Shown: positions 14,914 to 40,952, counted from the stretch's first letter. The stretch is DNA of 64,000 nt from Gaiellales bacterium (GCA_038230835.1 JBBRMM010000011.1:52529-116528), one strand, 5' to 3'. The notes: generated by a model not told the origin, from the letters alone. Numbers and translations are program-made.

Positions 14914-15273
14914 ATGCAGCTTCCGGCCGGGTTTCGCGTGGTGCACCCCGCCACTCCGCTCGAGGAGGCGGCGCATGAAACGGTGCGTGCCATACCTGCC
15001 GGGTCGGTCGCCAGCTACGGCCGGGTGGCCGATTGGATCGGCAGGCCCGGACGCTCGCGCGCCGTCGGCCGCGCGATGGCGGGCTGCCCGGACGACGTGC
15101 CGTGGCACCGCGTGGTGAACGCCTCCGGCGGGCTTGTCCCCGGCCACGAGCGGGAGCAGGCGCAGCGGCTGCGGGCCGAGGGAGTGCGGGTGGGCGCCGG
15201 TCGGGTGCAGGCGCCGGTGCCGTGGTGGCCAGGCCCGGTTATCCGTACTCGACCTGCTCGTAGTAGCGGGTGA
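14914..15273 (+). CDS. Alkyltransferase-like protein (Atl; MGMT DNA-binding domain without the catalytic Cys)
   Basis: ATG at 14914 in ORF 14764..15273. It has SYGRVA and PWHRVVNASG, where Trp replaces the Cys of the PCHRV motif. Confidence 0.75.
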   Translation: MQLPAGFRVVHPATPLEEAAHETVRAIPAGSVASYGRVADWIGRPGRSRAVGRAMAGCPDDVPWHRVVNASGGLVPGHEREQAQRLRAEGVRVGAGRVQAPVPWWPGPVIRTRPARSSG

Positions 15274-16267: not shown

Positions 16268-16899
16268 AGGATCCAGCGGTACACCTCGAACACCTCGGCG
16301 AGCCGGCGGCCGCTCTCGATGCCTCGGGTGCGGGCGATGTTGCGGATGTACTCCTCGTTGGCGTAGTTGCGATGCTGCTGGCTGGCGTAGCAGTCGAGTG
16401 CCGCCACCTTGCGGTCGAGGTGGGAGGGCTCGAGCGTGACGTAGGCCTGCTGGCGGAACTGGAAGCAGTTCCACGGGATCTCGTACCCCAGCAGCGTCGT
16501 CCGCTTGAACGCACGCATGCCCTCCCGGGCAACGGTCTCGTGATCCTGGTGGATGTCGCCCAGCGACGGCATCAGCACGAGTTCGGGCTGCAGCTCGTCG
16601 TTGGCGGCGACCAGCAGTTCGAGGATCTCCTGCCGAGCTCCGGGAAACGTGCGTACCTCGAAGTCGTGCACGGCCAGGTTGGCCGGAGGGATGCCCAGGG
16701 CGGCCGTCGCGGCCCGCACCTCGTGGGCGAGCGTGTCGGCGGGGAACCCCTCGGGCAGCGACCGCGACGCGGTCGAAAAGGCGATGTAGTGGACGTCCGC
16801 GCCCGCCTCCACCAGCCTCGCGATCGTCCCGCCGCAGCCGAATTCGCCGTCGTCCGTGTGCGGCGCCAGCACCAGCGTGCGGCGCCCGGCGGCGATCAT
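16264..16899 (-). CDS. PIG-L/LmbE-family N-deacetylase
   Basis: ATG at 16897..16899 (MIAAGRRTLVLAPHTDDGEFGCGGT) inside ORF 16264..18078, with HQDH further on. 4-nt overlaps at both ends. Confidence 0.85.
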   Translation of the reverse strand: MIAAGRRTLVLAPHTDDGEFGCGGTIARLVEAGADVHYIAFSTASRSLPEGFPADTLAHEVRAATAALGIPPANLAVHDFEVRTFPGARQEILELLVAANDELQPELVLMPSLGDIHQDHETVAREGMRAFKRTTLLGYEIPWNCFQFRQQAYVTLEPSHLDRKVAALDCYASQQHRNYANEEYIRNIARTRGIESGRRLAEVFEVYRWIL

Positions 16900-18329
16900 A
16901 CGGAGTGCTCCCGGGCGGGCGCGGGGGTGGACGTGCGGGAGATGAGAGCGATCAGGGCGATCAGGATCCAGGTTGCGGGGTCTTCGAAGAAGGCATTGTA
17001 AAAGAGCGAGCTGGCGAGGATGGCGATGAACGCCGCCAGCAGGGTCAAGCGCACGCCGCGGGGCCCGTCGCCGCGCAGCGCAGCCACCGCCACAGACGCG
17101 ATCAGCGCCAGGTAGAGCGCCAGCCCGAGCGGCCCCTGCTCGGCGAGCACGGTCAGCACCGTCGTGTGCGACGCCGCTGTGCCGACCCGCCAGGGGTGCT
17201 CCGTTCCGGCCAGGGCTGCCCGGGCGAACCCACCCAGGCCGGCCCCGATAACAGGGTGGTGGGCGATCACGCGGTCGGCCAGGCGCACCAGGTGCAGGCG
17301 ATCCGACGTGACCCGGTTGGCGCTGTTGCCCTGGAGTGCGAGCGCGAGCGCGCCTGCGCCGCCGATCGCACCGGCGGCGATCAGCGCGATCGTGGCCCGG
17401 CGCGGCCACAGTCCCGCTCCCAGCGCGAGGACGCCGACCGCCAGCGCCAGCAGGCTCGACTGGGAGTAGGCGAAATACAGCCCGCCGAACACGGCGACCA
17501 TCACCGCCGGCACCCAGTTCGCGGCGCGGCGGTGAATCGCGAGCCCGGCCAGGATGATCAGGGTGACCGCCATGAACCGGCCGTAGATGCTTGGATCCCA
17601 GAACACCGAGTTGACCCGGAAGAACGACTTGTACTGATTGCCGACCTCGACCTTGGGGTTCCAGAAGATGTGGTGTGTGACCTCCTGCCAGAGCGCGATC
17701 GCGGCGAACAGCACACCGAGGCACAGCTGGACCGCGAATGCCCGGCAGAGCAGCGGCGGCCGCAGGTCGAGCGCGCCCAGCCGCGCCAGCAGGATGCCGA
17801 ACGGCAGGTAGAAGAAGAGCATGGTGACGGCGCCCCGATGATCGTCCGCGCTCCACGCCATCGAGAGTGCCGACCAGCCGACGAAGCCGGCCATCGCCCA
17901 GCCCGCTGCGCCCAGACGCGGCGGGCGCTCGACACCTCGAAACAGGTCGTACGCGCTCGCCACAACGCCCGCGGCGGTCACGACGTACAGCGGCACCAGC
18001 AGGTTGGCCGTCGATCCGCCCACGCTGAACGGGATCCGGATCGGCGCCGCCGCCACCACCGCGCACAGAAACAGCCACGGCCAGCGACGGGTGGCGACCG
18101 TTGCCGCCGCGAGGCCGCCGCAGCCGACCATCAGCGCGACCACGCCGAGCAGGGGGCGCGTCGCGAGCGTGTGGCGCACGTGGGTGAGCGGGCTCTGGAG
18201 CAGCGAGATCGCCAGCAGGCCGGCTCCGGACAGCCAGGCGGCGAACCCCAACCGCCGCAGCCGGAGATCCGCCACCGTCAGCAGCGGCACCAGGCCCGCC
18301 GCCCCGATGATCGAGCCGAGGGTGTTCAC
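16896..18329 (-). CDS. O-antigen ligase-like (Wzy_C-like) polytopic membrane protein
   Basis: 477 aa with at least 10 TM segments. It has YSQSSLLALAVGVL and a loop followed by GAGLGGF. GTG start at 18327..18329. Confidence 0.7.
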   Translation of the reverse strand: MNTLGSIIGAAGLVPLLTVADLRLRRLGFAAWLSGAGLLAISLLQSPLTHVRHTLATRPLLGVVALMVGCGGLAAATVATRRWPWLFLCAVVAAAPIRIPFSVGGSTANLLVPLYVVTAAGVVASAYDLFRGVERPPRLGAAGWAMAGFVGWSALSMAWSADDHRGAVTMLFFYLPFGILLARLGALDLRPPLLCRAFAVQLCLGVLFAAIALWQEVTHHIFWNPKVEVGNQYKSFFRVNSVFWDPSIYGRFMAVTLIILAGLAIHRRAANWVPAVMVAVFGGLYFAYSQSSLLALAVGVLALGAGLWPRRATIALIAAGAIGGAGALALALQGNSANRVTSDRLHLVRLADRVIAHHPVIGAGLGGFARAALAGTEHPWRVGTAASHTTVLTVLAEQGPLGLALYLALIASVAVAALRGDGPRGVRLTLLAAFIAILASSLFYNAFFEDPATWILIALIALISRTSTPAPAREHSV

Positions 18330-18994
18330 GCGGTCACCCCGGCCGCCAGCGGCGCCGAGACGTTGCCGGCGGCGTCGACGGCGACGAGCGTCATCCTCGC
18401 GCCCGGCAGCCGATCCCTGGCCGGAACGGCCACGTGCCCGTGGCGGCCGCGCAGGATGGTGCCCGGCGACCCTCCGGCGGGGCGGATCGAGAGGTAGATC
18501 CTCGCCTGCTCGCTGACGTGGTAGTGCACAGGCACCTGGCCGGGAGGACTGAGGAGGGTCAGCGTGGGTGGCGCCGTGTCGAGCACGACCGGGTCGGGGA
18601 TCGTGATCGCGCGTCCGAGCGAGAGCAGATCGACCCGCAGCCGGTAGCGCCCGTCAGCGGCCGGGGCACCGTTCTGCGTCCGCCCGTCCCAGCGCAGCGT
18701 CACACGACCCGCAGGGTATCGACGTCCGCCGGCCGGGGTGAAGGTGCGCACGATGTGTCCGCCGGAGTCCAGGAGCGTCAACTCGAGGGTGGCCGGGGTG
18801 CGCAGGGCGAACCCGAGGGCCGCCGTGCGCACGCAGTGCGGCCCGGGCTTGCAGGTGGTCGACAGGTGCTTGGTGATCCTCGGGGTCGCGACCGGGGATC
18901 GCTCGAGCTTCAGCTGCTCGGCGCGCACGAAGGCGCCGCCTGAGGCGGCGATCAGCACCGCCACGACGGCGTATCCGATCCGGGTGGCGGGCAT
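18326..18994 (-). CDS. Membrane-anchored protein with FlgD-Ig-like beta-sandwich domain
   Basis: N-terminal anchor IGYAVVAVLIAASGGAF. It has LELTLLDSGGHIVRTF...GRVTLRWDGRTQNGAPAADGRYRLRV, typical of FlgD_ig-type domains. Confidence 0.55.
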   Translation of the reverse strand: MPATRIGYAVVAVLIAASGGAFVRAEQLKLERSPVATPRITKHLSTTCKPGPHCVRTAALGFALRTPATLELTLLDSGGHIVRTFTPAGGRRYPAGRVTLRWDGRTQNGAPAADGRYRLRVDLLSLGRAITIPDPVVLDTAPPTLTLLSPPGQVPVHYHVSEQARIYLSIRPAGGSPGTILRGRHGHVAVPARDRLPGARMTLVAVDAAGNVSAPLAAGVTA

Positions 18995-19135: not shown

Positions 19136-19921
19136 CTACCAGGCGCCCAGCAGCTTGAGGCCGCTGGCTGCAAGCACCGTCGCGATCGAGCCGCGCAGCG
19201 CCTTCTCGTGCATCTTGGCGGTGAAGTGGGAGCCGATCAGGATGCCGGGGATCGAGCCGATCAGGATCGATCCGACCACCGAGTAGTTGGGAGTTCCCCA
19301 GAGCACGGTGGCGAGGCCCGCAGTGACGGTGACCATCGCGCCGTGGAAGACATCGGTACCGACCACCTTGCGCGCGGACAGGGGGAAGATCGTGACCAGC
19401 GCGACGCCGAAGAAGACGCCCGAGCCGACCGAGGTGAGGCCGAGCAGGAAGCCGAAGACCACGCCGATCGAGAGAGCCAGCACCCGATGCCGACGGGTGA
19501 GCGGGCCGTCGGTCGGCAGCTTGGCGTTCTTGAACAGCCCACGGATCGTGACGAAGGTGCGGATGGCGACCATGACTCCGACCAGCACCAGCATGTAGCC
19601 GATCACTTTGGGCAGCCAGGAGTCGATGTTGTGGAAGACGTGGTAGAGCGAGAAGACGCCCACCAGCGCGCCCGGTACCGACCCGGCGCCCATCCACAGC
19701 GCGAGCTCACGGTTGACGTTCTTGAGCTGGGTGTGCCGCGCCGCGCCGAACATCTTGGTGATCGACGCGTAGATCAGGTCGGTGCCGACCGCGGTGCCGG
19801 CGGGGATGCCGAAGAACGAGATCAGGATGGGCGTCATCAGCGAGCCGGCGCCCATTCCGGTCAGCCCCACCAACAGCCCGACGGCCAGGCCCGCCCCTAT
19901 CAGTCCGATATTGATGTCCAT
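19136..19921 (-). CDS. TSUP-family permease (TauE/SafE sulfite/sulfonate exporter family), copy 1
   Basis: 261 aa with 8 TM-like segments. It has GLTGMGAGSLMTPIL and an internal repeat GLTSVGSG. SD GGGGGAGG lies 8 nt upstream. Confidence 0.85.
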   Translation of the reverse strand: MDINIGLIGAGLAVGLLVGLTGMGAGSLMTPILISFFGIPAGTAVGTDLIYASITKMFGAARHTQLKNVNRELALWMGAGSVPGALVGVFSLYHVFHNIDSWLPKVIGYMLVLVGVMVAIRTFVTIRGLFKNAKLPTDGPLTRRHRVLALSIGVVFGFLLGLTSVGSGVFFGVALVTIFPLSARKVVGTDVFHGAMVTVTAGLATVLWGTPNYSVVGSILIGSIPGILIGSHFTAKMHEKALRGSIATVLAASGLKLLGAW

Positions 19922-20050: not shown

Positions 20051-20851
20051 TCAGCCGAACAGGCCGAGCAGCTTCATGCCGGAGAGCGCCAGCACCGCTG
20101 AGAGCGAGCCTCTCAGCGCCCGTTCGGGCAGTTTGACCGAAAGTTGCGCTCCGACGAGAATCCCGGGGATCGAGCCGAGCATCAGGAACCCGATGCTGGA
20201 GAACGCGATCGAGGGCAGGAAGAAGTACGCCGCGGTGGCGGCCGCGATGGTGACCAGCGCGCCGTGGAAGAGGTCGGTGCCGACCACCTTCAGCGTCGAC
20301 AGCGGAAACAGCGTGAGCAGGGCCATGCCGAAGAACGCTCCGGCTCCGACAGAGGTCAGACCAAAGACGAACCCGAACACGAGGCCGATCGCCATCGCCA
20401 GCACCCGGTGGCGGCGATTCAACGGCCCGTCCTTGGGGATGTTGTCGGTGAAGATCGCCCGCAGCGTGAAGAACGTTCGGACCGCGACCGCAATTGCCAC
20501 CAGGATCAGGGCGTAGCCGATCACGTCCTTGATGTCTGCCTGGACGGCCTTGCCCTCGGAAGCGGCCAGCCGGTGCAGCGTGTACACGCCGGCGACAGAC
20601 GCCGGCACGCTGCCCACCGCCATGTAGACGGCGAGCTCGCGATGCACGGTGTTCAGGGTCAGGTGGCGCACGCCGCCGACCAGCTTGGTGCCGGCCGAGT
20701 ACAGCAGGTCGGTGCCCACGGCGGCCACCGCGCCGACGTTGAACACGGTGATCAGGATCGGCGCCATCAGCGATCCGGCGCCCATACCTGTGGCACCGAT
20801 CAGCAGGCCGACGACCAGTCCGGCCAGGGTGAGCTTCTCGTTCAGTCCCAC
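20051..20851 (-). CDS. TSUP-family permease (TauE/SafE family), copy 2
   Basis: ORF 20051..20875. I prefer the GTG at 20849..20851 because GAGG lies 5 nt upstream and the N-terminus then aligns in length with copy 1 (VGLNEKLTLAGLVVGLLIGATGMGAGSLMAPIL). Confidence 0.85.
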   Translation of the reverse strand: MGLNEKLTLAGLVVGLLIGATGMGAGSLMAPILITVFNVGAVAAVGTDLLYSAGTKLVGGVRHLTLNTVHRELAVYMAVGSVPASVAGVYTLHRLAASEGKAVQADIKDVIGYALILVAIAVAVRTFFTLRAIFTDNIPKDGPLNRRHRVLAMAIGLVFGFVFGLTSVGAGAFFGMALLTLFPLSTLKVVGTDLFHGALVTIAAATAAYFFLPSIAFSSIGFLMLGSIPGILVGAQLSVKLPERALRGSLSAVLALSGMKLLGLFG

Positions 20852-20861
20852 GATTGCCTCA

Positions 20862-20891
20862 AATATAAGCGGCAAAGTGGGGAATGCAAGT
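20862..20891 (-). promoter_or_regulatory. Promoter-like element upstream of TSUP copy 2 (TTGCAT-N16-TATATT), containing the shared 16-nt motif
   Basis: The minus strand reads ACTTGCATTCCCCACT TTGCCGCT TATATT TGAGGCAATC GTG. It sits directly after the sat terminator hairpin. Confidence 0.45.
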
Positions 20892-20935: not shown

Positions 20936-22105
20936 TCAGCTCTTGCTGCGGTAGGCCTCGATCAGCACCTGCGCCACCTCGGGCCGGGTGAACTCGACCG
21001 GCGGGATCTCCCCGTTTCCGAGCATCTCCCGCACCTTGGTGCCCGAAAGGAACACGTGGTGCTCCTGGGGATGAGGGCAGGTCTTGTTGGAAGCCATGTT
21101 GCCGCACGTGCGGCAGAAGAACGTGTGGTCGAAGAACATCGGCTCGATGTCCAGCTCGTGCGGCTCGAACTCGTCGAAGATGTAGTGGGCGTCGTAGGTG
21201 CCGTAGTAGCTGCCCACTCCGGCATGGTCGCGACCGACGATGAAGTGCGAGCAGCCGTAGTTCTTACGGCAGATCGCGTGCCACACCGCTTCCCGCGGGC
21301 CGGCATAGCGCATTGCCGCCGGAAACACTCCGAGGAGCGTGCGGTCGGGCGGGTAGTAGCCCTCGAGCAGCACGTCGTAGCAGCGCATGCGAACGTCTGC
21401 AGGGATGTCGTCGCCCTTGGTCTTGCCCACCAGGGGATGCAGCAGCAGGCCGTCCACCGTCTCCAGTGCGCACTTCTGCACGTGCTCGTGCGCGCGGTGC
21501 ACCGGATTGCGGGTCTGGAAGCCGACCACTCGGCTCCAGCCACGCTCGGCGAAGATCCGCCGGGTGTCGACGGGGTCGAGCGTGGCGGCCGGGAAGGCAG
21601 GCTCAGGTCGTTTGAACACCGTCACCGGGCCACCGACGAGGGTCGACCCCTCGGCGTAGATCTGCGCCACGCCGGGGTGCGCCTCGTCCGTCGTGCGGTA
21701 GACCTTGGCGGCCTCGTTCTCGCGGTCGGCCTGGAACACCTCGGCCACCTTGAGCACGGCCAGCAGATCCCCCTCGTAGCCTTCGAGCGCGATCCGCCCG
21801 CCGCTGGGCGCAGTCTCCACGGCCAGCGTGACCGGGATCGCCCAGGGAAGACCGTTCTCGAGGTGCATGTGCTCGACCGAGCCGGTGTAGTCGGCGCTGG
21901 TCATGAAGCCGGTCAGCGGCGAGAGTGCCCCCGACGCGATCATGTCCAGATCTGCGGTCTGCTTCTCGGTCATGCGCACCCGCGGCAGCGATGCGGCCTC
22001 CGCGGCCAGGGCGGCGGCTTCGTCACCGCTCACCGTGCGGTCGACGAGTTCCCCGCCGTGGGGAGCGATCAGGTGGCTCTTCTTGGTCTCGGTCGCACCT
22101 GTCAT
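20936..22105 (-). CDS. sat: Sulfate adenylyltransferase (ATP sulfurylase, homo-oligomeric Sat type)
   Basis: ATG at 22103..22105 (MTGATETKK) inside ORF 20936..22639. Motifs: VGFQTRNPVHRAHE, GRDHAGVG, PUA-like N-terminal domain. Confidence 0.93.
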   Translation of the reverse strand: MTGATETKKSHLIAPHGGELVDRTVSGDEAAALAAEAASLPRVRMTEKQTADLDMIASGALSPLTGFMTSADYTGSVEHMHLENGLPWAIPVTLAVETAPSGGRIALEGYEGDLLAVLKVAEVFQADRENEAAKVYRTTDEAHPGVAQIYAEGSTLVGGPVTVFKRPEPAFPAATLDPVDTRRIFAERGWSRVVGFQTRNPVHRAHEHVQKCALETVDGLLLHPLVGKTKGDDIPADVRMRCYDVLLEGYYPPDRTLLGVFPAAMRYAGPREAVWHAICRKNYGCSHFIVGRDHAGVGSYYGTYDAHYIFDEFEPHELDIEPMFFDHTFFCRTCGNMASNKTCPHPQEHHVFLSGTKVREMLGNGEIPPVEFTRPEVAQVLIEAYRSKS

Positions 22106-22668
22106 CAGGCGACGGCCTCTTCTCGGGCGGGCTCCAGAAATCCGAGCCGCTCCAGCTCCCCGATCACGTACTCGGCCGACTGCTCGGGCGATCGGCCCTC
22201 GGTCTCGACCGTGATCTCGGGGTTCTCGGGTGCCTCGTACGGGTCCGAAATGCCGGTGAACTCCTTGATCTCGCCCGAGCGCGCCTTTGCGTACAGGCCC
22301 TTCAGGTCGCGTCGCTCGCATTCCTCCAGCGACGTGGCGACGAAGATCTCGACGAAACGGGTGTCGATCATCTCGCGCACCATGTCGCGGGTCTCGGAGT
22401 ACGGCGAGATGGCCGCGCAGATCACGCAGGCGCCGTGGCGCGTCAGCAGCTTCGCCACGAAGCCGATGCGCAGGATGTTCGTGTCGCGGTCCTCGCGTGA
22501 GAAGCCGAGGCCCTTGGACAGGTTGGTGCGGACGACGTCGCCGTCCAGGTGCTCGACCAGCACGCCGCGCCGCTCGATCTCGGGGCCGATGATCTGGGCG
22601 ATGGTGCTCTTGCCCGATCCCGACAACCCCGTGAACCACAGGGTGAATCCGGTGTGTTCGTGTGTCAC
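22105..22668 (-). CDS. cysC: Adenylylsulfate (APS) kinase
   Basis: GTG at 22666..22668 with AGGA 9 nt upstream. P-loop [31 protein letters not shown]-like segment. The stop overlaps the sat start by 1 nt. Confidence 0.92.
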
Positions 22669-22711: not shown

Positions 22712-23401
22712 CTACCGGGCGTGCAGCCCGCACTCCACCTTGCCGGTGCCACGCCACCGTCCCGACCGCTCGTCGGCAGCCGCCCCGCCTGCGGAGCTGG
22801 TGCACGGGATGCAGCCGATCGACGGATACCCGTGGTCGTGCAGAGTGTTGTAGGGGATGCTGTGCCTCCAGATGTATCGCCACACGTCGCGGCTCGTCCA
22901 GTCTGCAAGTGGCTGGACCTTCACCACACCACGCCGTTCGTCCATCTCGATTTTGCGTGCATTCTGCCTCGTTGTCGACTGTTCGCGTCGAATTCCTGTC
23001 ACCCAAGCGTCCATTCCCTCCAATGCGCGCTCGAGCGGTGCGACCTTGCGGATCCCGCAGCATGCGTCGGGATCGCGCTCCCAGAGCCGATCTCCGTGCT
23101 CCTTGGCCTGCTCGTCGACGGTCAATTCGGGGTCGATTCTCTCGAAGTTTATCGGATAACGGGAGATTAACTTCTTCCGCGTCTCGTAGGTCTCCGGGAA
23201 CAGCAGACCGGTGTCGAACTCGACCACGCGCATGCTCGGTGCGATCTCGGACACCATGTGCACCAGCACGGAGCTCTGCTTCTGCCAGGAGCACGTGAGC
23301 AGGATCCGCTCGCCGAAGCGGTCGGCCGCCCACTCCAGTACGCGCTCGGCGCTCAGCGGCTCAAGCTCGTCCGCGACGCGGTCGATCTCGACGGCGGTCA
23401 T
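22712..23401 (-). CDS. cysH: Adenylylsulfate (APS) reductase, thioredoxin-dependent CysH type with Fe-S cysteines
   Basis: ATG at 23399..23401 (MTAVEID). PAPS_reduct fold with CC ([10 protein letters not shown]) plus CxxC (SIGCIPCT) and C-terminal ECGLH. The Cys pairs mark the APS-using, 4Fe-4S subclass. Confidence 0.88.
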
Positions 23402-23415
23402 GGGCAGGGTGCGGC

Positions 23416-24195
23416 TCACGTGCGGGCCGGGAGATCCCGCAGCAGAAGGTCGGCCATGGTGTCGGATCGCAGACCCAGACGGAGGGTCTCGAGCGGGATC
23501 ACCTCTTCGGGAGGGATGTTCCCCAGATTGACCTCGGCCCCCAGGTGGCGGATGAACCACGCCTGCTGTTCCTTCTGGGGCGCCTCGAAGAGCAGGTTGT
23601 CCACCGGGATCTCGTGCACGATCTCGTCGATCAAGCCGCTTCTGACCTCACCCGTGCCGCGGAAGATGCCGGCGGTGCCGCCCTCGCGCGCCTCTGTGAT
23701 CACCTTGACTGCGCCGGCGGCCAACTCCTCCTTGATCCACACCACCCACTGATACGGCGCGAAGATGCACTCGCTGTCCTTCGACCCGACCTCGGACAGC
23801 ACGACGAACTCCTGCGCGAGGGACGAGATCAGCTCGAGCTTCGAGTCGCGCTCGATCTGGATCGTGCCGTCGGACACCTCGACGTGTGTGAACCCGTGGG
23901 TGGTGGTCCAGCGGCGGAACTCATCCACCTTGCCACGGGCGATCGCCGCCTCCAGCAGGGTGCCGCCGCACATCACGGGGATTCCGGCCTGCTGGTACAG
24001 GCGCAGCTTGTCGACCAGGTTGCGCGTCACGTACGACGTGCCCCAGCCCAGCTTGACGATGTCGACGTAGTCGCCGGCGGAGTCCAGCAGCCCCTCCACC
24101 TCGGACAGCGTGAGACCCTTGTCGATCACGTGCGTCCAGCCGCGTTCGCGTGGTTTGGCCGGGCGCATCGGCAGACCCAGGAATTCTTCGACCAT
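23416..24195 (-). CDS. comA: (2R)-phospho-3-sulfolactate synthase (ComA family)
   Basis: 259 aa. Close by-eye match to archaeal ComA landmarks: VIDKGL, DYVDIVKLGWGTS, GGTLLE, VEVSDG, FEAPQKEQQAWFI, VNLGNI, EVIPLETLRLGLRSDT. Confidence 0.88.
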   Translation of the reverse strand: MVEEFLGLPMRPAKPRERGWTHVIDKGLTLSEVEGLLDSAGDYVDIVKLGWGTSYVTRNLVDKLRLYQQAGIPVMCGGTLLEAAIARGKVDEFRRWTTTHGFTHVEVSDGTIQIERDSKLELISSLAQEFVVLSEVGSKDSECIFAPYQWVVWIKEELAAGAVKVITEAREGGTAGIFRGTGEVRSGLIDEIVHEIPVDNLLFEAPQKEQQAWFIRHLGAEVNLGNIPPEEVIPLETLRLGLRSDTMADLLLRDLPART

Positions 24196-24210: not shown

Positions 24211-24795
24211 CTAGAGCTTTGCGTAGATGGAGTCTTCGAGGCGCCTGCGCGCCTCGACCTGGACGTTCTCGTAGAGCGATTCGCCGTGTGTGTCCATGCC
24301 GACGATCAGCGGCCCGAAGTCGCGCACCCGGAACTTCCACAGGCACTCGGGCATCAGGTCTTCCCACTCGACCTGCTCGATCTCCTCGATCTGGGTCGTC
24401 TCGAGCGCCGCTGCGCCGCCGACGATCGCCAGGTAGACGCCGCCGTGCGCCCGCAGCGGCTCCAGCGCCTCGGGCAGCAGGCCGCCCTTGCCGATGATCG
24501 CCCTGGCCTGGTGGTCGCGCACCAGGCCCTCGGTGAACCGGCTCATCCGGGCCGACGTGGTGGTGCCGATGCACATCGGCTCGTACCGTCCGTCGCCGAG
24601 CTTCCGCACGTTGGGGGCCGTGTGCAGGAGGGCGGCGCCCTGGAGCGGGATTGGGGGCTGTTGGCCGTTGTCGAAGATCCGGATCTGGGTTGCGTCACGG
24701 ATCCCGATGATGTGCCCCTGGATGGTCACGGTGTCACCGGCGCGCAGTCCGCGGACGGTCGCCTCGTCGGTGGGGAAGGTGATCTCGTGGTGCAT
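24211..24795 (-). CDS. Class I (Fe-S) fumarate hydratase / tartrate dehydratase family, beta subunit (Fumerase_C)
   Basis: ATG at 24793..24795 (MHHEITF) in ORF 24211..24867. GDTVTIQGHIIGIRDATQ and IIGKGGL. The start overlaps the alpha-subunit stop by 1 nt. Confidence 0.85.
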   Translation of the reverse strand: MHHEITFPTDEATVRGLRAGDTVTIQGHIIGIRDATQIRIFDNGQQPPIPLQGAALLHTAPNVRKLGDGRYEPMCIGTTTSARMSRFTEGLVRDHQARAIIGKGGLLPEALEPLRAHGGVYLAIVGGAAALETTQIEEIEQVEWEDLMPECLWKFRVRDFGPLIVGMDTHGESLYENVQVEARRRLEDSIYAKL

Positions 24796-25694
24796 CAGGC
24801 CTCCCGATCCCAGTCGACGCTGCCGTCGGCGGTGATGTGGACGCTCGCCCGACGTGCGGCCCAGCACTGGTAGTTGACCGCCACTGGATTCAGGGTGATG
24901 TGCGTGTGCGCCTGCTCGACATGCACGGCAAGCACCGTGGTGTCGCCGCCCAGCCCCATCGGTCCCACGCCGGTCTCGTTCAGCAGCACGAACAGCTCGG
25001 TCTCGAGCCCCGCCACGTCCGGGTCAGCGTTCTGGGTGCCGACCGGCCGGGCGATCGCCTCCTTGGCCAGGTGCATGGCGAGGTCGGCCGAACCGCCGAT
25101 GCCGACGCCCACGATCCCCGGCGGGCACGGCTTGCCGCCCGCCCCGACGATCGAGTCGAGCACGAAGCGCTTGATCGCCTTCACGCCGTCGGCCGGCACC
25201 AGCATCTTCAGAAAGCTCATGTTCTCGGAGCCCGAGCCCTTGGGGACGCACTTGACGTCCAGGCCGTCCCAGTCGGGCACGAAATCCCAGTGGATGTGCG
25301 GGATCCGGTGGCCGGTGTTGTCCCCGGTCGGCTTGCGGGTCAGGGTGTGCACCGTGTTCGAGCGCAGCGGATGTTCGAGCGTCGCCCGCCGCGTGCCCTC
25401 TCGCAGCGCCGCCTCGATCCGCACCGGGTGGAGGCCGAAGCGCTCGCCCACGCGCACGTAGTAGACCGCGATGCCGGTGTCCTGGCAGACGAGGTTCTTG
25501 CGCTCGTCAGCCACCTCGACATTGGTGTTGATCGTCTCCAGGATCCGCTTTCCCACCTTGTGCGTCTCGCGCTCCATGGCATCCTTCAGGGCGTCGCGGA
25601 GATCCTGGGGGATGTCCTTGAGCGCCCACACGTACAGGTGCGCCGCGGCATCCTCCACCACCTGCGCCAGGTTGGTCTCGACGGTCGTCGTCAT
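24795..25694 (-). CDS. Class I (Fe-S) fumarate hydratase / tartrate dehydratase family, alpha subunit
   Basis: ATG at 25692..25694 (MTTTVETN) in ORF 24795..26837. LVCQDTGIAVYYV, PKGSGSENMS, GIVGVGIGGS. Confidence 0.85.
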   Translation of the reverse strand: MTTTVETNLAQVVEDAAAHLYVWALKDIPQDLRDALKDAMERETHKVGKRILETINTNVEVADERKNLVCQDTGIAVYYVRVGERFGLHPVRIEAALREGTRRATLEHPLRSNTVHTLTRKPTGDNTGHRIPHIHWDFVPDWDGLDVKCVPKGSGSENMSFLKMLVPADGVKAIKRFVLDSIVGAGGKPCPPGIVGVGIGGSADLAMHLAKEAIARPVGTQNADPDVAGLETELFVLLNETGVGPMGLGGDTTVLAVHVEQAHTHITLNPVAVNYQCWAARRASVHITADGSVDWDREA

Positions 25695-26896
25695 CGCGTC
25701 CTTTCGGCGGCCGCTGCGCCGGCCCGGCGGCCGAATACCACGCAGTCGAGCAGCGAATTGCCCATCATCCTGTTTCGGCCGTGCACGCCGCCGGAGACCT
25801 CTCCCGCCGCGAACAGCCCTTGCACGGTGGTCTCCCCATGGCGATCGATGCGAAGCCCACCGTTCTGGTAGTGAAGCACGGGATAGGTCAGGATCGGCTC
25901 GGTCAGCGGGTCGATGCCGGCCGCGCGATAGCGCCGCATCATGTACGGCAGCACCTGCGCGGCCACCTCGGGGTCGATCAGTGTGGTATCGAGCAGGACC
26001 GCAGGGCGACCGTCCGGAGTGGTCAGACCACGACCCTCGGCGCACTCGTTCACGATCGCCTCGGCCACGGTGTCGCGCGGAGCCAGCTCGTCCACGAATC
26101 GCTCCCCGGTGGCGTTTCGCAGCAGCGCGCCGTAGGCGCGGGTGGTCTCGGGGATCGAGTAGCCCTGCAGGGGCGGTGGCCATGCGCCGCCGTTGGGATG
26201 GTGCTGGAGGGCATCGAAGTCGCGCACCTCGGCACCCAGGTCGCGGGCCATGCCGGTGGCCTCTCCGGTGGCGCCGGGCTGGTTGGTGGTCAGCACGCCG
26301 GCCGCCTGGGCCTCGGCGTAGCAGCGCCCGCCGGTGGCCAGCACCACCGCGCCGGCGTCCACGGCGCGCCGCTCGCCCGCCTGCTCGACGACCGCGCTGA
26401 AGCGGCCGTTGGGCCGGTCGAGGGAGATCAGCGGCGCGTGGTCGTGGATCACCAGCCCACGGGCGTCGAGCGCCGAGCGCAGCGCGCTGGCAATGGCGTG
26501 GCCGGTGCGGTCGCCGACCTGCAACAGGCGGTGCGCGGTTGCACCGCCGCAGCGGGCCAGCCGGTACCCGTCGCCCTCGCGGGAGAATTCGACTCCCAGC
26601 TGCTCCAGCCAGGCGATCGCCTCCGGTGCCCCGGCCGTCAGCAGATCGGCCAGTTCCGGGTCGGCGGTGTCGTGCGACGAGCGGATGACGTCGGCGGCAT
26701 GCTGCTCGGGCGAGTCGTCGCCGCCGACGGCGGCCTGGATCCCGCCCTGAGCCTTGCCGGTGTTGCACGACGCCTTCGAGCCCTTGGTGATCAGCAACAC
26801 GTCGGCGCCCGCGCGGGACGCCGCCAGTGCCGCGCACAGGCCGGCCCCGCCGCTGCCCACGACGAGCACGTCAGCGTGTGTGGGGAGTTCGCTCAC
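25691..26896 (-). CDS. FAD-binding flavoprotein of the fumarate reductase / succinate dehydrogenase / L-aspartate oxidase family (short, ~400 aa)
   Basis: GTG at 26894..26896. DVLVVGSGGAGLCAAL, AQGGIQAA, LQHHPNGG, GLFAAGEVSGGVHGRNRMMGNSL. The C-terminal helical domain of SdhA/NadB is absent. The stop overlaps the next start (ATGA). Confidence 0.8.
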   Translation of the reverse strand: MSELPTHADVLVVGSGGAGLCAALAASRAGADVLLITKGSKASCNTGKAQGGIQAAVGGDDSPEQHAADVIRSSHDTADPELADLLTAGAPEAIAWLEQLGVEFSREGDGYRLARCGGATAHRLLQVGDRTGHAIASALRSALDARGLVIHDHAPLISLDRPNGRFSAVVEQAGERRAVDAGAVVLATGGRCYAEAQAAGVLTTNQPGATGEATGMARDLGAEVRDFDALQHHPNGGAWPPPLQGYSIPETTRAYGALLRNATGERFVDELAPRDTVAEAIVNECAEGRGLTTPDGRPAVLLDTTLIDPEVAAQVLPYMMRRYRAAGIDPLTEPILTYPVLHYQNGGLRIDRHGETTVQGLFAAGEVSGGVHGRNRMMGNSLLDCVVFGRRAGAAAAERTR

Positions 26897-26942: not shown

Positions 26943-27353
26943 TTATACTGAGTAGCGCTCGGCCGTGCAGCGGAGCTGGTCGCCGTCGGCCGGCACCTGG
27001 CCGATCTTCCACGGCAGCACCAGCGGGTCGCCGGCGTAGCGCGGGATCACGTGCACGTGGTAGTGAAAGACGGTCTGCCACGAGGCGGCGCCGTTGTTCT
27101 GCATGATCAGCACACCGTCCGCCCCCAGGGTGCGGACCGCCGCCTCGGCCAGTCGGCGGGCCATGCGGGCGCAGGCGGCGAGGTCGTCGTCGGACGCCTC
27201 GCGGATGTCCGGCGCGTGGGCTCGCGGAAGCACCAGCGCATGGCCGCGGGTGGCCGGGAAGATGTCCATGATCGCGATCGTCCGCTCGTCTTCGAAGACG
27301 CGCGTGGAGGGCAGCTCTCCGGCCACGATGCGGCAGAACAGGCAGTCGTCCAT
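26943..27353 (-). CDS. HIT-family (histidine triad) nucleotide hydrolase/transferase
   Basis: 136 aa. CLFCRIV, and the histidine triad HYHVHVIP. Confidence 0.9.
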   Translation of the reverse strand: MDDCLFCRIVAGELPSTRVFEDERTIAIMDIFPATRGHALVLPRAHAPDIREASDDDLAACARMARRLAEAAVRTLGADGVLIMQNNGAASWQTVFHYHVHVIPRYAGDPLVLPWKIGQVPADGDQLRCTAERYSV

Positions 27354-27392: not shown

Positions 27393-28322
27393 GTGACCGA
27401 CGTCACCATCTCGATCGTGTCAGGCGGCCGCCCCGAGCTGCTCGACGCCTGCCTGGCGTCGATTCCGGCCGCCGCCCGCGCTGTCACGGTCGACACCGTG
27501 GTGGTCGACAACGCGTCCCCGGACGGATTGCCGGGCGTCGCTGAGCGCGCCGGGGTCGAGATCCGCCGCAGTGAGCTGCGGCAGGGCTTCTCGGCCAATC
27601 ACAACCTCGCCCTGCGGGGCGCGGCCGGCCGCTACCTGTTCGTGCTGAACGACGATACGGAGCTGCACGAAGGATGCCTCGATCGGCTGGTGGCCTTCAT
27701 GGACCAGAACCCCGCGGTGGGCTGTGCCGGACCGCGCATCGTCCACGCCGACGGCCGGCTTCAGGCTTCAGCCTTCCGCTTCCCGACCCCGGCTCGGGTC
27801 GCGTTGACCGCGATCACGCTGCAGCGAGCCGGGTGGGTGCTCTCCGGCGGCGAGCGCATCCGCCGAGTGGACTGGGTGCACGGCGCCGCCATGCTGGTGC
27901 GGCGGTCGGCGTTCGAAGAGGTCGGTGGACTCGACGACAGCTTCTACATGTACCTGGAGGATGTCGACCTGTGCCGTCGCCTACGCGATCGCGGCTGGGA
28001 GGTCGCCTTCTTCCCCCGCGCTTCGCTCGTGCACTTCGAGAACTCGTCGACCGCCGACGTCCCCGAGCGGCGTATCGTTCAGCACGCCCGCAGTCGCAGC
28101 GTGTACACCCGCAAGCACCACGGCGATGCCGCCGAGCGCGCGGTGCAGGCGCTCACCGCCGGGATGTTTGCCGGTCGCATCGGCGCCTCCAAGCTGCTGC
28201 GCCGCGACGCCGCCGAGCGTGCCCGGTTCGCGGCTCACATCCGTGCATCGCTTCGCCCGGATGCCCGCCCGGCCGTTGAGGAGGCGGCGGCCGAGCACAA
28301 CACCCGGTCGGCTGCGGTATGA
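27393..28322 (+). CDS. Glycosyltransferase family 2 (rhamnosyltransferase-like)
   Basis: GTG at 27393 in ORF 27051..28322. ISIVSGGRPELL, VVDNASPDG, LNDDTEL, MYLEDVDLCRR. Confidence 0.85.
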   Translation: MTDVTISIVSGGRPELLDACLASIPAAARAVTVDTVVVDNASPDGLPGVAERAGVEIRRSELRQGFSANHNLALRGAAGRYLFVLNDDTELHEGCLDRLVAFMDQNPAVGCAGPRIVHADGRLQASAFRFPTPARVALTAITLQRAGWVLSGGERIRRVDWVHGAAMLVRRSAFEEVGGLDDSFYMYLEDVDLCRRLRDRGWEVAFFPRASLVHFENSSTADVPERRIVQHARSRSVYTRKHHGDAAERAVQALTAGMFAGRIGASKLLRRDAAERARFAAHIRASLRPDARPAVEEAAAEHNTRSAAV

Positions 28323-29305
28323 GCGGGCGCGTCCTCGTGACCGGCGGGCTGGGCTTCATCGGGTCGGCGTTCGTGCGTGCGCTGGCGGCCGACGGTGAGC
28401 AGGTGCTGAACGTCGACGTCGACACCTACGCCGGCGACGAGCGGCGGCTGGCCGACGTCACGGGCGTTGAGACGGTGGGAGTGGACGTCGCCTCTGACGC
28501 GCTGGCCGAGCTGGTCGACCGGGAGCGCCCACCGCTGATCGTGCACTTCGCCGCCGAGTCACACGTCACCCGCAGCGAGGAGGCGGGCCGGGTGTTCTTC
28601 CATTCGAACGTCGAAGGCACGCGCCGCGTGCTCGAGGCAGCGGCCGCCGCGGGGGTGGCGCGGGTTGTGCACATGTCGACGGACGAGGTGTACGGGCCGT
28701 GTCCCGGGGTGCCGTTCGTGGAGGCGGACAAGCTCGAGGGAGAGGGCCGGGCGACCAGCGCCTACGCCCGCTCCAAGGCTGTGGCCGACGACGTGGCGCG
28801 GTCGTTCGCCGACCGGCTGGACGTCGTCGTCGCCCGGCCGACCAACTGCATCGGACCGTGGCAGCACCCCGAGAAGGCTGTCCCGCGCTGGGCCACCCGA
28901 GCAATCCGCGGTGGGCGGCTCCCGGTGTGGGGTGACGGCCGGCAGGTGCGCGACTGGATGTTCGTCACCGACGCGGTTGCGGCGCTGCGGTTGCTCGCCG
29001 AGCGCGGCGAGCGCGGCGGCGTGTACAACGTCGGCCCGGAGGCGGAGAACACCCCCAACATCGAGATCGCCCGGATGGTGGCGAGGGCGGCGGGCCTGGA
29101 CGCCGAGGCGGTCTATCTGTCGCACTACGACCGGCCCCAGCACGACCGCCGCTATGCAGTGGACTCGGGGCGTCTACGGGCGCTCGGGTGGCGTCCGCGC
29201 TACGACCTGGCCGGGGCGGTGTCGGCGACGGTCGCGTGGTATCGCGAGCGGGCCGACTGGTGGGAGTCGCTGGTGCCCGATGCGGAGGCCCTGTATGCCG
29301 ACTGA
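28319..29305 (+). CDS. rfbB: dTDP-glucose 4,6-dehydratase
   Basis: VLVTGGLGFIGS, HFAAESHV, STDEVYG, YARSKA. The ATGA junction and the rml neighbours support the call. Confidence 0.85.
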   Translation: MSGRVLVTGGLGFIGSAFVRALAADGEQVLNVDVDTYAGDERRLADVTGVETVGVDVASDALAELVDRERPPLIVHFAAESHVTRSEEAGRVFFHSNVEGTRRVLEAAAAAGVARVVHMSTDEVYGPCPGVPFVEADKLEGEGRATSAYARSKAVADDVARSFADRLDVVVARPTNCIGPWQHPEKAVPRWATRAIRGGRLPVWGDGRQVRDWMFVTDAVAALRLLAERGERGGVYNVGPEAENTPNIEIARMVARAAGLDAEAVYLSHYDRPQHDRRYAVDSGRLRALGWRPRYDLAGAVSATVAWYRERADWWESLVPDAEALYAD

Positions 29306-29813
29306 GTCGGCCATCCCGGGCGTGTTGATCGATCGCCCTGCCGTGTTCGGCGACGAGCGCGGGCGGTTCGCGGAGATCTTCAGGGCCGCCCGGATGCCGG
29401 CCGCGTTTGTGCAGTCCAACCATTCCCGCTCGTCGGCAGGTGTGTTGCGTGGCCTGCACTACCACTGCCATCAGGCGGATCTGTGGTATCTGGTGAGCGG
29501 GCGTGCCCAGGTGGCGCTCGCGGATCTGCGCCGGCGAGACCGGGCTCCCCGCGTCGAGAGCTTCGTGCTGAACGCCGAGACGCCGACCAGCGTCTATATA
29601 CCCGAGGGAGTCGCACACGGCTATCTGGCGCTGACCGAGATCGACCTCATCTACTGGGTGACCGGTGAGTACGACCCCTCGGACGAGCGCGGGGTGGCCT
29701 GGAACGACCCCACTCTCGCGGTTCCGTGGCAGCTCGACGGCGAACCGGTGGTGAGCGCTCGCGATGCCGCCAACCCGACCCTGCAGTGGGATCTGATCCC
29801 GTCATTTGCGTAA
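29295..29813 (+). CDS. rfbC: dTDP-4-dehydrorhamnose 3,5-epimerase
   Basis: ATG at 29295 in ORF 28665..29813. FGDERGRFAE, VLRGLHYH, LYIPEGVAHGY-like segment (VYIPEGVAHGYLAL). Confidence 0.88.
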   Translation: MPTESAIPGVLIDRPAVFGDERGRFAEIFRAARMPAAFVQSNHSRSSAGVLRGLHYHCHQADLWYLVSGRAQVALADLRRRDRAPRVESFVLNAETPTSVYIPEGVAHGYLALTEIDLIYWVTGEYDPSDERGVAWNDPTLAVPWQLDGEPVVSARDAANPTLQWDLIPSFA

Positions 29814-30589
29814 CCGGTGCGGACGGCCAGGTTGGCCGCGCGCTGCGGCATCACCTCCCGTCCGCGCGGTTCCTCACGCGTGCAGAGCTCGACGTTACCG
29901 ACCAGCGTGCGGTGCGCCACCTGGTGGGCGGCGCCGACCTCGCGATCCACTGCGCCGCCATGACCGACGTCGATGGCTGCGAGCGCGACCCCGACGGCGC
30001 GGCGGCGGTCAACTCGTGGGGTGCCGCCCACGTGGCGACGGCCGCCCGCCGGGTGATTCAGCTGTCGACGGATTACGTGTTCGACGGCAGTGCGGCGGGC
30101 TGTTATTCCGAGGATGCCGCGACCGCGCCCACATCGGTGTACGGGCGCACCAAGCTGGACGGCGAGCGGGCCGTGCTCGAGGCGGGCGGCAACCTGGTCG
30201 TGCGCACGGCTTGGGTGTACGGCGAGGGGCGCAATTTTCTCCGCTCGATCGTCGCCGCCGAGGCGGACGGGCGGCCGCTGAGGGTGGTGGCCGACCAGCG
30301 GGGACGACCGACCTGGGCCGAGGATCTGGCCCGCGCTCTGGGCCACCTGGCGGGGCGCACCGACGAGGGCGTGGTGCACGTCACCGGTGACGGCGAGCCG
30401 TGCTCCTGGGCAGATCTCGCCGAGTTCGCCGTCGGCCACCCGGTGCAGCGGATTTCGAGCGCCGAGTGGGCGGCACCGGCACCGCGGCCGGCCAACAGCG
30501 TGCTCTCGCTCGATCGAGCGCGCACGCTCGGGGTTCCTCTGGCAGACTGGCGCACGTCGGTCGCGACCTATCTGAAGGGACTCTCGTGA
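29786..30589 (+). CDS. rfbD: dTDP-4-dehydrorhamnose reductase
   Basis: Candidate GTG at 29786 in ORF 29726..30589. VTGADGQVG, STDYVFDG, YGRTKLDGE, DQRGRPT. The exact start is uncertain. Confidence 0.82.
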   Translation: MGSDPVICVTGADGQVGRALRHHLPSARFLTRAELDVTDQRAVRHLVGGADLAIHCAAMTDVDGCERDPDGAAAVNSWGAAHVATAARRVIQLSTDYVFDGSAAGCYSEDAATAPTSVYGRTKLDGERAVLEAGGNLVVRTAWVYGEGRNFLRSIVAAEADGRPLRVVADQRGRPTWAEDLARALGHLAGRTDEGVVHVTGDGEPCSWADLAEFAVGHPVQRISSAEWAAPAPRPANSVLSLDRARTLGVPLADWRTSVATYLKGLS

Positions 30590-31314
30590 AAGGTGTGGTG
30601 CTCGCGGGCGGGTACGGAACCCGGCTTGCCCCGATGACCAGGGTGGTCAACAAGCACCTGCTGGACGTGTTCGACCAGCCGATGGTGTACTACCCGCTCC
30701 GGGCGCTGGCGCAGGCGGGTATTAGCGACGTGGTACTGGTCACCGGGGCTGAGATCGACCAGTTCCGTGCGCTGCTCGGGGACGGCGGAGACCTGGGCGT
30801 GCGGATCGAATACGTGCAGCAGCCGGGCGCCGGTGGGATCGCCGAGGCGCTCGGCCTCGTCCGGCCGCACGCCGACGGCGAAAGTCTGGTCGCGATCCTG
30901 GGCGATAATCTCTACCAGGATGACCTGACCCCGTATGTCGAGGCATTCGCGCGGCAGGGCGGTGGGGCGCGGATCCTCCTCAAGCAGGTCGAGGACGCGC
31001 GCAGGTTCGGCGTCGCCACCGTCGAGGGCGACCGGATCACCGAGATCGTGGAGAAGCCCGCCGAGCCGAGCAGCGATCTGGCGGTGACCGGCTGCTACAT
31101 GTACGACCCCGAGGTGTTCGACGTCATCACCGGCCTGCGCCCGTCCGGTCGCGGTGAGCTCGAGATCACCGACGTCAACAATGCCTACATCGCCCGCGGT
31201 CAGATGCATTTCGACGTCCTCCGCGGATGGTGGACGGACGCTGGCACCCATCCCAGCAAGCTCAAGGCGTCGATCCTGGTCGCCCTCACCAAGGGCGTCA
31301 CCTTTCACGCCTGA
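30586..31314 (+). CDS. rfbA: Glucose-1-phosphate thymidylyltransferase (short-form RmlA-like sugar nucleotidyltransferase)
   Basis: The GTG at 30586 overlaps the rfbD stop. VVLAGGYGTRLAPMT, KHLLDV, GIAEAL, EKP. Confidence 0.72.
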   Translation: MKGVVLAGGYGTRLAPMTRVVNKHLLDVFDQPMVYYPLRALAQAGISDVVLVTGAEIDQFRALLGDGGDLGVRIEYVQQPGAGGIAEALGLVRPHADGESLVAILGDNLYQDDLTPYVEAFARQGGGARILLKQVEDARRFGVATVEGDRITEIVEKPAEPSSDLAVTGCYMYDPEVFDVITGLRPSGRGELEITDVNNAYIARGQMHFDVLRGWWTDAGTHPSKLKASILVALTKGVTFHA

Positions 31315-40912: not shown

Positions 40913-40952
40913 TTGCCCCGGTTATCGACCCACGCCCGACCCGGTTTACGCG

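Follow-up and report, generated by a model that had tools for sequence, protein, structure and literature searches.

Homologues of fumarase and fumarate reductase encoded beside ComA in a Gaiellales glycan locus: a candidate route to a sulfonated three-carbon acid

In a stretch of 64,000 nucleotides from a Gaiellales bacterium (GCA_038230835.1 JBBRMM010000011.1:52529-116528, hereafter the window), three genes at positions 24,211 to 26,896 encode a flavoprotein of the fumarate reductase (Frd), succinate dehydrogenase (Sdh) and L-aspartate oxidase (NadB) family and the alpha and beta subunits of a class I iron-sulfur (Fe-S) fumarase homologue, FumA and FumB. They precede the gene for the phosphosulfolactate synthase ComA. 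Judged by sequence comparison, there is in our estimate a somewhat better than even chance that these three genes supply the central tailoring steps in the biosynthesis of a sulfonated three-carbon acid, most likely 3-sulfopropanoate for a surface glycan. The window has a G+C content of about 70 %, and every close relative is a metagenome-assembled genome assigned to Gaiellales/Thermoleophilia within the Actinomycetota.

Linkage of flavoprotein, hydro-lyase and ComA

Gene products were assigned by Pfam scans of about 50 open reading frames (ORFs) of the window and by NCBIfam equivalog models with their cut-offs. The genes for flavoprotein, FumA, FumB and ComA form, in this order, the head of a gene string of about 13 kb on the minus strand, with a gene for an HIT-family protein foremost. 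The flavoprotein (25691..26896, 401 amino acids) is of the two-domain Frd/Sdh/NadB type and matched PF00890 (FAD_binding_2) over residues 9-382 with 255 bits. The class I Fe-S fumarase-type alpha subunit (24795..25694, 299 amino acids) matched PF05681 (Fumerase) with 310 bits, the beta subunit (24211..24795, 194 amino acids) PF05683 (Fumerase_C) with 105 bits, and ComA (23416..24195, 259 amino acids) PF02679 with 292.6 bits. The stop codon of the flavoprotein gene overlaps the start of the alpha gene (ATGA), the alpha stop and the beta start overlap by one base (TGATG), and a gap of 15 nucleotides with GGGAGG inside separates beta from ComA. The arrangement described in the earlier note, ComA linked to a two-subunit class I fumarase homologue and this to a flavoprotein of about 400 amino acids, was confirmed in all parts by the Pfam matches and the junctions. 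A scan for promoters and terminators between 13 and 28 kb gave counts close to chance expectation, thus operon limits were drawn from gene spacing alone.

Eighty ComA-anchored loci were fetched from Gaiellales genomes, and 55 of them presented the order flavoprotein-FumA-FumB-ComA. The word-indexed protein search with the flavoprotein returned relatives with at least 74 % identity only. Eighty flavoprotein-anchored loci were fetched from metagenomes, all with 66-74 % GC; those with at least 2.9 kb downstream were informative (n = 30). ComA was present in all 30, with FumAB located in between in 29. The linkage of flavoprotein and FumAB to ComA is not due to chance, and its conservation speaks for the functional association with ComA on which the earlier note had built.

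Twelve of the 55 four-gene loci had no adjoining cysH. Nine genomes possess such a cysH-less locus together with a second locus on another contig, where another ComA is accompanied by sulfate genes. The stand-alone four-gene loci are flanked by an ATP-grasp gene of their own and by a gene for a DUF7033-family protein. Examples of two-locus genomes were found among the loci L037-L057 (L041 and L043, L044 and L045, L046 and L052): one ComA is encoded with flavoprotein-FumAB, ATP-grasp and DUF7033 genes, the other with HIT and CysH-CysC-Sat-TauE genes, and the paralogues in the nine genomes are about 75-80 % identical to the ComA of the window. The presence of two ComA paralogues suggests two separate sulfonate products per cell.

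More distant relatives were obtained from a search of 1.84 billion representatives (50 % identity), which yielded flavoproteins of about 400 amino acids with 36-65 % identity. Among 150 representatives at 50 % identity, this cluster is marked by a proline at the position of FrdA Thr244. All eight distant flavoproteins with the proline signature that were examined (35-42 % identity) adjoin ComA and/or a lyase; the GC contents of three measured loci were 32 %, 44 % and 47 %. Two of the eight clusters encode FumAB, in the orders flavoprotein-FumA-FumB-ComA-His_Phos_1-PIG-L-ATP-grasp (L081) and flavoprotein-(136-amino-acid protein)-FumA-FumB-ComA-3'-phosphoadenylyl sulfate (PAPS) reductase (L098). 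The histidine phosphatase (His_Phos_1) of L081 follows directly after ComA. Five clusters encode a Lyase_1 protein: Lyase_1-ATP-grasp-flavoprotein-ComA-GT2-DegT in L084; ATP-grasp-flavoprotein-Lyase_1-ComA-DUF7033 protein (best match VimE), followed by two glycosyltransferases and Wzy, in L086; ATP-grasp-flavoprotein-Lyase_1, then GT2 and DegT, with a PAPS reductase on the opposite strand and no ComA within the 15 kb read, in L089; a weak deacetylase match-flavoprotein-Lyase_1-ComA-ATP-grasp-like-Wzy in L090; and flavoprotein-Lyase_1-ComA with an AMP-binding ligase two genes downstream in L097. In the eighth cluster, L099, the genes for flavoprotein and ComA are convergent and an AMP-binding ligase is encoded on the opposite strand. 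Two relatives without the proline signature, the archaeal protein P0146 (415 amino acids) and a form of 481 amino acids, had no ComA linkage. P0146 was left out of the clade, having neither the Pro-Glu motif nor a linkage to ComA, and the control P0196, located at the end of a 2.5-kb contig, was uninformative.

The slot of FumAB is thus filled in five of the eight distant clusters by a protein of the aspartase/fumarase family, and FumAB and the XcbC-like lyase were mutually exclusive in the fetched loci. Two of these lyases were scanned, and the best NCBIfam model was CoM_syn_XcbC for both, with 455 bits for L084 and 387 bits for L086; argH scored 266 and 255 bits. In tblastn, the L086 lyase matched Xaut_5053, the gene following that of the phosphosulfolactate synthase/ComA on plasmid pXAUT01 of Xanthobacter autotrophicus Py2, as well as plasmids of Nocardioides sp. 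JS614, Methylocystis and Mycolicibacterium chubuense NBB4. XcbC eliminates phosphate from phosphosulfolactate to form sulfoacrylic acid (PMC9457059). Because two unrelated lyases share the slot between ComA and the same flavoprotein, gene content points to sulfoacrylate as the common intermediate and to the flavoprotein as its probable reductase. We regard this exchange of lyases as the strongest single result. The earlier proposal, in which the hydro-lyase makes sulfoacrylate and the flavoprotein reduces it, is favoured by the linkage in all eight distant clusters and by the XcbC-type replacement.

Active sites of the hydro-lyase and the flavoprotein

The nearest solved structure to the hydro-lyase is the fumarate hydratase of Methanocaldococcus jannaschii (7XKY; 7XKY_A, E-values 7e-72 for alpha and 3e-31 for beta), to which the alpha subunit is 43 % identical. 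The two-subunit build, the three cysteine ligands and the catalytic Asp and Thr-Thr are alike in the window enzyme, the M. jannaschii enzyme and the tartrate dehydratase TtdAB. When alpha was aligned to TtdA, FumA and the M. jannaschii enzyme, its [4Fe-4S] ligands C70, C190 and C277 proved invariant. Conserved were also the Gln-Asp after the first cysteine, an Arg and a His in alpha as well as Arg-Asp, Thr-Thr-x-x-Arg and a Lys in beta; we assume for these residues the roles that they have in the structure of the Leishmania major fumarate hydratase.

The beta subunit, in contrast, is divergent from those of the fumarases and TtdAB: beside the catalytic Thr pair it reads GTTTS where fumarases have GPTTS, elsewhere HTAP where they have HAGP, and three residues are deleted. 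GTTTS was present in all 61 ComA-anchored loci with a FumB match (once as GTTTSTRM) and HTAP in 52 of the 61. The identity of the window protein to the ComA-linked FumB of L081 is 61 %, to archaeal fumarase beta subunits 37-39 %. It scored under the cut-offs of all five matching models for beta subunits of two-subunit fumarases, tartrate dehydratases and Fe-S hydro-lyases, e.g., 155.7 bits against 269 for NF004708 and 150.9 against 264 for TtdB. (R)-Sulfolactate and L-malate have, by the Cahn-Ingold-Prelog rules, an equal spatial configuration, therefore sulfolactate is stereochemically reasonable as a substrate. The alpha/beta enzyme is a candidate sulfolactate or phosphosulfolactate lyase, for which the genomic context argues for a sulfonate as physiological substrate; unlike in the fumarases and TtdAB, its genes are obligately linked to ComA, and sulfolactate takes the place of malate or tartrate as the proposed substrate.

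The AlphaFold2 model of the flavoprotein (pLDDT 95.9) has two domains, with E. coli FrdA (TMq 0.90), flavocytochrome c3, SdhA and NadB as best fold matches. An FAD (flavin adenine dinucleotide)-binding domain, a capping domain and a His-Arg-His-Arg set are common to the window protein, the soluble fumarate reductases (flavin domain of Shewanella flavocytochrome c3, yeast Frd1/Osm1), FrdA and NadB. In an alignment of the flavoprotein relatives with E. coli FrdA, SdhA and NadB, the residues of dicarboxylate binding and proton transfer, FrdA His232, Arg287, His355 and Arg390, corresponded to H233, R274, H342 and R376 of the window protein, and the set was kept in all scored clade members but two. 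Unlike these enzymes, the window protein has no haem, no flavin mononucleotide, no C-terminal helical domain and no Fe-S partner. Its last residue, 401, lies at the point from which FrdA continues into its C-terminal domain, and a C-terminal Sdh/Frd domain is absent; as the earlier note had stated, no Frd/Sdh iron-sulfur or membrane-anchor subunit was found by Pfam among the window ORFs.

The position of the histidine that binds FAD covalently (FrdA His44) is occupied by Asn in the window protein and by Asn or Lys across the clade. The predicted non-covalent FAD resembles that of the soluble fumarate reductases and NadB. Within the Frd/Sdh family, a non-covalent FAD goes with alkene reduction and disfavours an oxidation of the succinate type. 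FrdA Thr244, which we take from the E. coli mutagenesis literature to form a hydrogen bond to the substrate, is replaced by Pro, a residue invariant in the alignment of 24 clade members. At the position of NadB Glu121, which we assume to be specific for NadB and to touch the amino group of the substrate, the window protein has Ala, and the position is unconserved across the clade. The flavoprotein scored under the cut-off of every NCBIfam equivalog model for NadB, SdhA and FrdA; its top match was the NadB model TIGR00551 with 254.7 bits against a cut-off of 452.75. The labels of clade members in public records, 'L-aspartate oxidase' or 'succinate dehydrogenase/fumarate reductase flavoprotein subunit', are probably mistaken, because the defining residues are missing and because of the gene context. 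We consider the flavoprotein a candidate sulfoacrylate reductase, i.e., sulfoacrylate is the proposed substrate.

Sulfate activation, ligase and glycan genes of the locus

The operon downstream of ComA, from CysH to a glycosyltransferase of family GT4, and the setting in a glycan locus had been overlooked in the earlier note. ComA is a full-length protein (positions 2-243 of 243 of PF02679) that scored slightly under the archaeal equivalog TIGR03849 (257 against 280) and shares 40 % identity with XcbB of X. autotrophicus, a known phosphosulfolactate synthase (PMC9457059). Next on the minus strand are genes for a thioredoxin-type reductase of adenylyl sulfate (APS) or PAPS, CysH (22712..23401; PF01507, 181 bits; NF002537, 269 against a cut-off of 154), for the APS kinase CysC (22105..22668, likely start GTG at 22668; PF01583, 216 bits), for the ATP sulfurylase Sat (20936..22105; PF01747 and PF14306; NF003166, 543 bits) and for two TauE/SafE (TSUP) permeases (20051..20875 and 19136..19921; PF01925, 122 and 143 bits), the first of which is a likely transporter of sulfate or sulfo-anions. 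The CysH translation shows CC and CxxC motifs, which we take to be typical of Fe-S APS reductases, and the protein is the putative source of sulfite. A sulfotransferase is encoded in the same locus on the plus strand (7247..8272; PF13469, 118.6 bits). It is likely a PAPS consumer, and the need for PAPS would explain an APS kinase next to a CysH with APS-type motifs.

Families of coenzyme M biosynthesis were searched for in the window. Among the ORFs scanned with Pfam there was no match to a ComB-type phosphatase, as the earlier note had observed, nor to the dehydrogenase ComC or the decarboxylase ComDE. A tblastn with five pXAUT01 proteins found ComA as the sole match and no homologue of XcbA, XcbC, XcbD or XcbE. 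The beginning of bacterial coenzyme M synthesis in X. autotrophicus Py2 (XcbB/XcbC, PMC9457059) is similar in that the ComA step is followed by a lyase in both, and sulfoacrylate is the likely product of the window enzyme too. The lyase of the window is a class I Fe-S fumarase homologue, however, with a fold unrelated to that of XcbC. XcbD, XcbE and XcbA are absent, the next enzyme is a putative flavin reductase, and an ATP-grasp ligase comes after it within the glycan locus; coenzyme M is therefore not expected as the end product.

The minus-strand string continues with genes for an FlgD_ig-domain protein (18326..18994; PF13860, 39.7 bits), located between the TauE genes and a gene for a Wzy_C (O-antigen ligase/polymerase-like) membrane protein (16896..18329; PF04932, 34.3 bits), for a PIG-L family de-N-acetylase (16264..16899; PF02585, 66.8 bits), for an ATP-grasp ligase with a PylC-like N domain and ATPgrasp_Ter (15239..16267; PF15632, 61.9 bits; PF21360, 32.8 bits) and for the GT4 glycosyltransferase (13598..14881; PF13439 and PF13692). 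The Wzy_C, PIG-L and ATP-grasp genes have stop-start overlaps (ATGA between Wzy and PIG-L, GTGA between PIG-L and ATP-grasp). Divergent glycan genes lie on the plus strand at 27396..31314, a GT2 gene and then genes for RmlB-like, RmlD-like and RmlA-like proteins (PF00535, PF01370, PF04321, PF00483), and Pfam identified more glycosyltransferases farther off in the window. The region is a glycan-biosynthesis locus with its own sulfate-activation genes.

Of the eight distant clusters, seven encode a carboxylate-activating ligase, ATP-grasp or AMP-binding, as do the window and the Gaiellales loci assigned to type C. ATP-grasp genes flank the flavoprotein gene in L081, L084, L086, L089, L090 and the type C loci; AMP-binding ligases occur in L097 and L099. 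Like the window and the type C loci, three of the eight distant clusters have a gene for a deacetylase (PIG-L, DUF7033 or a weak match to Polysacc_deac_1), and most of these clusters have genes for glycosyltransferases, Wzy or flippases. The PIG-L protein of the window is 56 % identical to that of L081, encoded after ComA and His_Phos_1, whose best NCBIfam match is BshB1 with 73.9 bits, under the cut-off. DUF7033 proteins are encoded directly after ComA in L086 (11525-12853) and L044 (10900-12075). For the L086 protein, the best NCBIfam model was VimE, a UDP-2,3-diacetamido-2,3-dideoxy-glucuronate deacetylase, with 212 bits against a cut-off of 440. Because most clusters contain a ligase and several contain a deacetylase, the simplest reading suggests an N-acyl exchange in which the acid becomes amide-linked to an amino sugar, with the ATP-grasp protein as candidate amide-forming ligase for the sulfonated acid. 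A PIG-L/LmbE-type deacetylase paired with an ATP-dependent ligase is also known from bacillithiol (BshB/BshC) and mycothiol (MshB/MshC) biosynthesis. The window differs in that its ligase is of the ATP-grasp rather than the BshC/MshC type, that no cysteine ligase is present and that the genes lie among those for a Wzy-like protein and glycosyltransferases.

The HIT-family protein at the head of the string is encoded at 26943..27353 on the minus strand (PF01230, 86.8 bits). Its gene is kept upstream of the flavoprotein or ComA gene in most of the closer Gaiellales loci; the stand-alone four-gene loci do not have it. Known HIT proteins have nucleotide phosphoramidates or adenylyl-sulfate-type compounds as substrates, and the protein may act on nucleotides of the latter type; in view of these substrates, a role as the missing phosphatase was not adopted. 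Relatives of the FlgD_ig protein occur in 48 of the fetched Gaiellales loci. Farther away in the window, an EgtD-type histidine methyltransferase (41714-42718, plus strand; PF10017, 355 bits) suggests an ergothioneine-type biosynthesis close by, and two adjoining PilZ-domain proteins near the glycan locus (40268-41663, minus strand) are candidate receptors for cyclic di-GMP. An unusual pair is encoded at 45250-47369 on the minus strand: a short protein of 265 amino acids that covers no more than the C-terminal portion of the citrate synthase profile, and directly at its stop codon the start of a gene for an AMP-binding (PaaK-like) ligase.

Proposed route, alternatives and significance

In the proposed route, sulfate would be taken up, possibly by TauE, activated to APS by Sat and reduced to sulfite by CysH. 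ComA would add sulfite to phosphoenolpyruvate, yielding (2R)-phosphosulfolactate (2-phospho-3-sulfolactate). After dephosphorylation, for which the histidine phosphatase of the equivalent cluster L081 provides a candidate by analogy, the Fe-S alpha/beta hydro-lyase would remove water to form 3-sulfoacrylate, the analogue of fumarate; alternatively, phosphate may be removed directly. A prior dephosphorylation agrees with the presence of a phosphatase in L081, a cluster of the FumAB type, and with the XcbC-type clusters, in which no phosphatase family was recorded. The flavoprotein, with its predicted non-covalent FAD and an active site like that of fumarate reductase, would reduce sulfoacrylate to 3-sulfopropanoate, the analogue of succinate. 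The ATP-grasp ligase would then activate the carboxylate and join it to a sugar amine freed by PIG-L, and the glycosyltransferases encoded nearby, together with the Wzy-like protein, would incorporate the modified sugar into a surface glycan. Inference begins after ComA: it covers all substrates and products from there on, which way the flavoprotein reaction runs, its electron donor and the glycan acceptor. The sulfate-activation genes point to synthesis, and the deacetylase, ATP-grasp and glycan genes point to a decoration of glycans and not to central or catabolic metabolism. That a set of ComA, a sulfoacrylate-forming lyase of the FumAB or XcbC type, an Frd-like reductase and a carboxylate ligase attaches 3-sulfopropanoate to amino sugars in Gaiellales and several unrelated lineages is a broader statement, to which we give slightly less than an even chance.

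Several observations weigh against the route to 3-sulfopropanoate. All support for it is genomic. The alpha subunit passes the cut-off of the fumarate hydratase model NF004885 (318 against 276 bits), and the aligned substrate-contact residues of FumAB are those of true fumarases, thus the FumAB sequence by itself gives no sign of an altered specificity. Pfam scans identified no phosphatase in the Gaiellales clusters, and no gene for an electron donor or redox partner of the flavoprotein is encoded nearby in the window. The linkage also has exceptions among the 80 ComA-anchored loci. FumAB-ComA without flavoprotein was present in three or four of them (including L012 and L058), and ComA with flavoprotein and without FumAB in two (L063, L066) and additionally in L173. 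Sixteen loci contain ComA and sulfate-activation genes and neither flavoprotein nor FumAB, several of them with PIG-L and ATP-grasp, so the tailoring enzymes are dispensable for some product. Loci of this kind are L017-L022, with the order HIT-ComA-CysH-CysC-Sat-TauE and in most cases additional Wzy, PIG-L and ATP-grasp genes. As a speculation, those with ComA, PIG-L and ATP-grasp (L017, L018, L019 and L022) may attach a less processed acid, e.g., sulfolactate.

Route and product would be the same if the Fe-S hydro-lyase eliminated phosphate directly from phosphosulfolactate, in the manner of XcbC, and a phosphatase were unneeded in Gaiellales. This variant is unlikely, though we take it seriously: it fits the missing phosphatase gene of the Gaiellales clusters and the position of FumAB in the exact slot of the XcbC-like phosphate lyase of other lineages. 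Against it stands L081, the one distant FumAB-type cluster with a rich context, by its histidine phosphatase gene after ComA. Enzymes of the class I fumarase type bind the leaving hydroxyl group to the unique iron of the cluster, and we know of no phosphate-eliminating member.

A use of the flavoprotein as dehydrogenase or oxidase is improbable. It would convert sulfolactate to enol-sulfopyruvate, or act on cysteate as NadB does on aspartate, with sulfopyruvate or cysteate as product and with the fumarase-type enzyme in charge of enol/keto or hydration chemistry. Amino-acid oxidases are among the members of the flavoprotein family, and the top NCBIfam match is a NadB model; succinate dehydrogenase slowly oxidises malate, and class I fumarase has oxaloacetate tautomerase activity. 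ComA and flavoprotein without any lyase, as in L063, L066, L173 and L099, would also agree with an oxidase. However, a non-covalent FAD disfavours oxidation of the succinate type, neither an aminotransferase nor a decarboxylase is coupled to the Gaiellales operon, and the replacement of FumAB by an alkene-forming XcbC-like lyase is left unexplained. The role of a NadB-type amine oxidase was rated low in view of this replacement and of the absent Glu121.

Two further readings are very improbable. Ordinary central metabolism, i.e., a fumarase and a soluble fumarate reductase or aspartate oxidase without functional link to ComA, could account for the alpha subunit passing the fumarate hydratase cut-off and for active-site residues equal to those of fumarases and fumarate reductases. 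It is contradicted by the translational coupling of the genes, by a linkage that is kept down to 35-42 % flavoprotein identity across very different GC contents with FumAB replaced by an XcbC-like lyase, by the failure of beta subunit and flavoprotein at all equivalog cut-offs and by the many Gaiellales ComA loci without these genes. The other reading is a catabolic direction, from 3-sulfopropanoate over sulfoacrylate to sulfolactate with a subsequent release of sulfite, perhaps by ComA in reverse. The operon has sulfite-making sulfate-activation genes, a ligase, a deacetylase and glycan-assembly genes. No sulfolactate sulfo-lyase or kinase was seen, and the non-covalent FAD suits a reduction better. 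A catabolic route of this type was proposed for homotaurine degradation in Roseovarius nubinhibens in a thesis, as cited in PMC11489063. The same sulfonate analogues of succinate, fumarate and malate appear there, in the opposite direction and for another purpose. Since the enzymes go unnamed in the citing paper, we make no claim of homology.

Coenzyme M as product is the least probable of all and was rejected: ComA is the first enzyme of both known routes and sulfoacrylate an intermediate of the bacterial one, but the Pfam scans and the tblastn search found none of the later enzymes of either in the window.

No account of a class I fumarase homologue linked to ComA, of an enzyme that reduces sulfoacrylate or of ComA within glycan loci came out of the literature searches. 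The nearest published precedents are the XcbB/XcbC steps (PMC9457059) and, as far as it is rendered by PMC11489063, the reverse sequence of the Roseovarius thesis. None of the proteins of the window cluster falls outside known families. What would be new is the pathway, together with two proposed activities, that of an Fe-S sulfolactate dehydratase and that of a flavin-dependent sulfoacrylate reductase. The use of a class I fumarase and of XcbC at one step would be a clean case of non-orthologous displacement.

To our knowledge, only a small number of ways to form carbon-sulfonate bonds have been described, and the main associations of ComA so far are with coenzyme M and with the sulfolactate of Bacillus spores. 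If the proposal is true, ComA feeds a third kind of product, and two enzyme families of the tricarboxylic acid cycle type were recruited to the sulfonate analogues of malate, fumarate and succinate. Sulfonate-decorated surface glycans would then be present in Gaiellales and several unrelated lineages. A large part of soil sulfur is present as carbon-bonded sulfonate whose origin is unclear, and Gaiellales are actinobacteria reported to be common in soil. The cluster recurred in 80 of 80 flavoprotein-anchored metagenome loci, 30 of which extended far enough downstream to be informative on ComA. A sulfonated envelope polymer, perhaps also sulfated by the linked sulfotransferase, could be a source of the sulfonate pool in soil.

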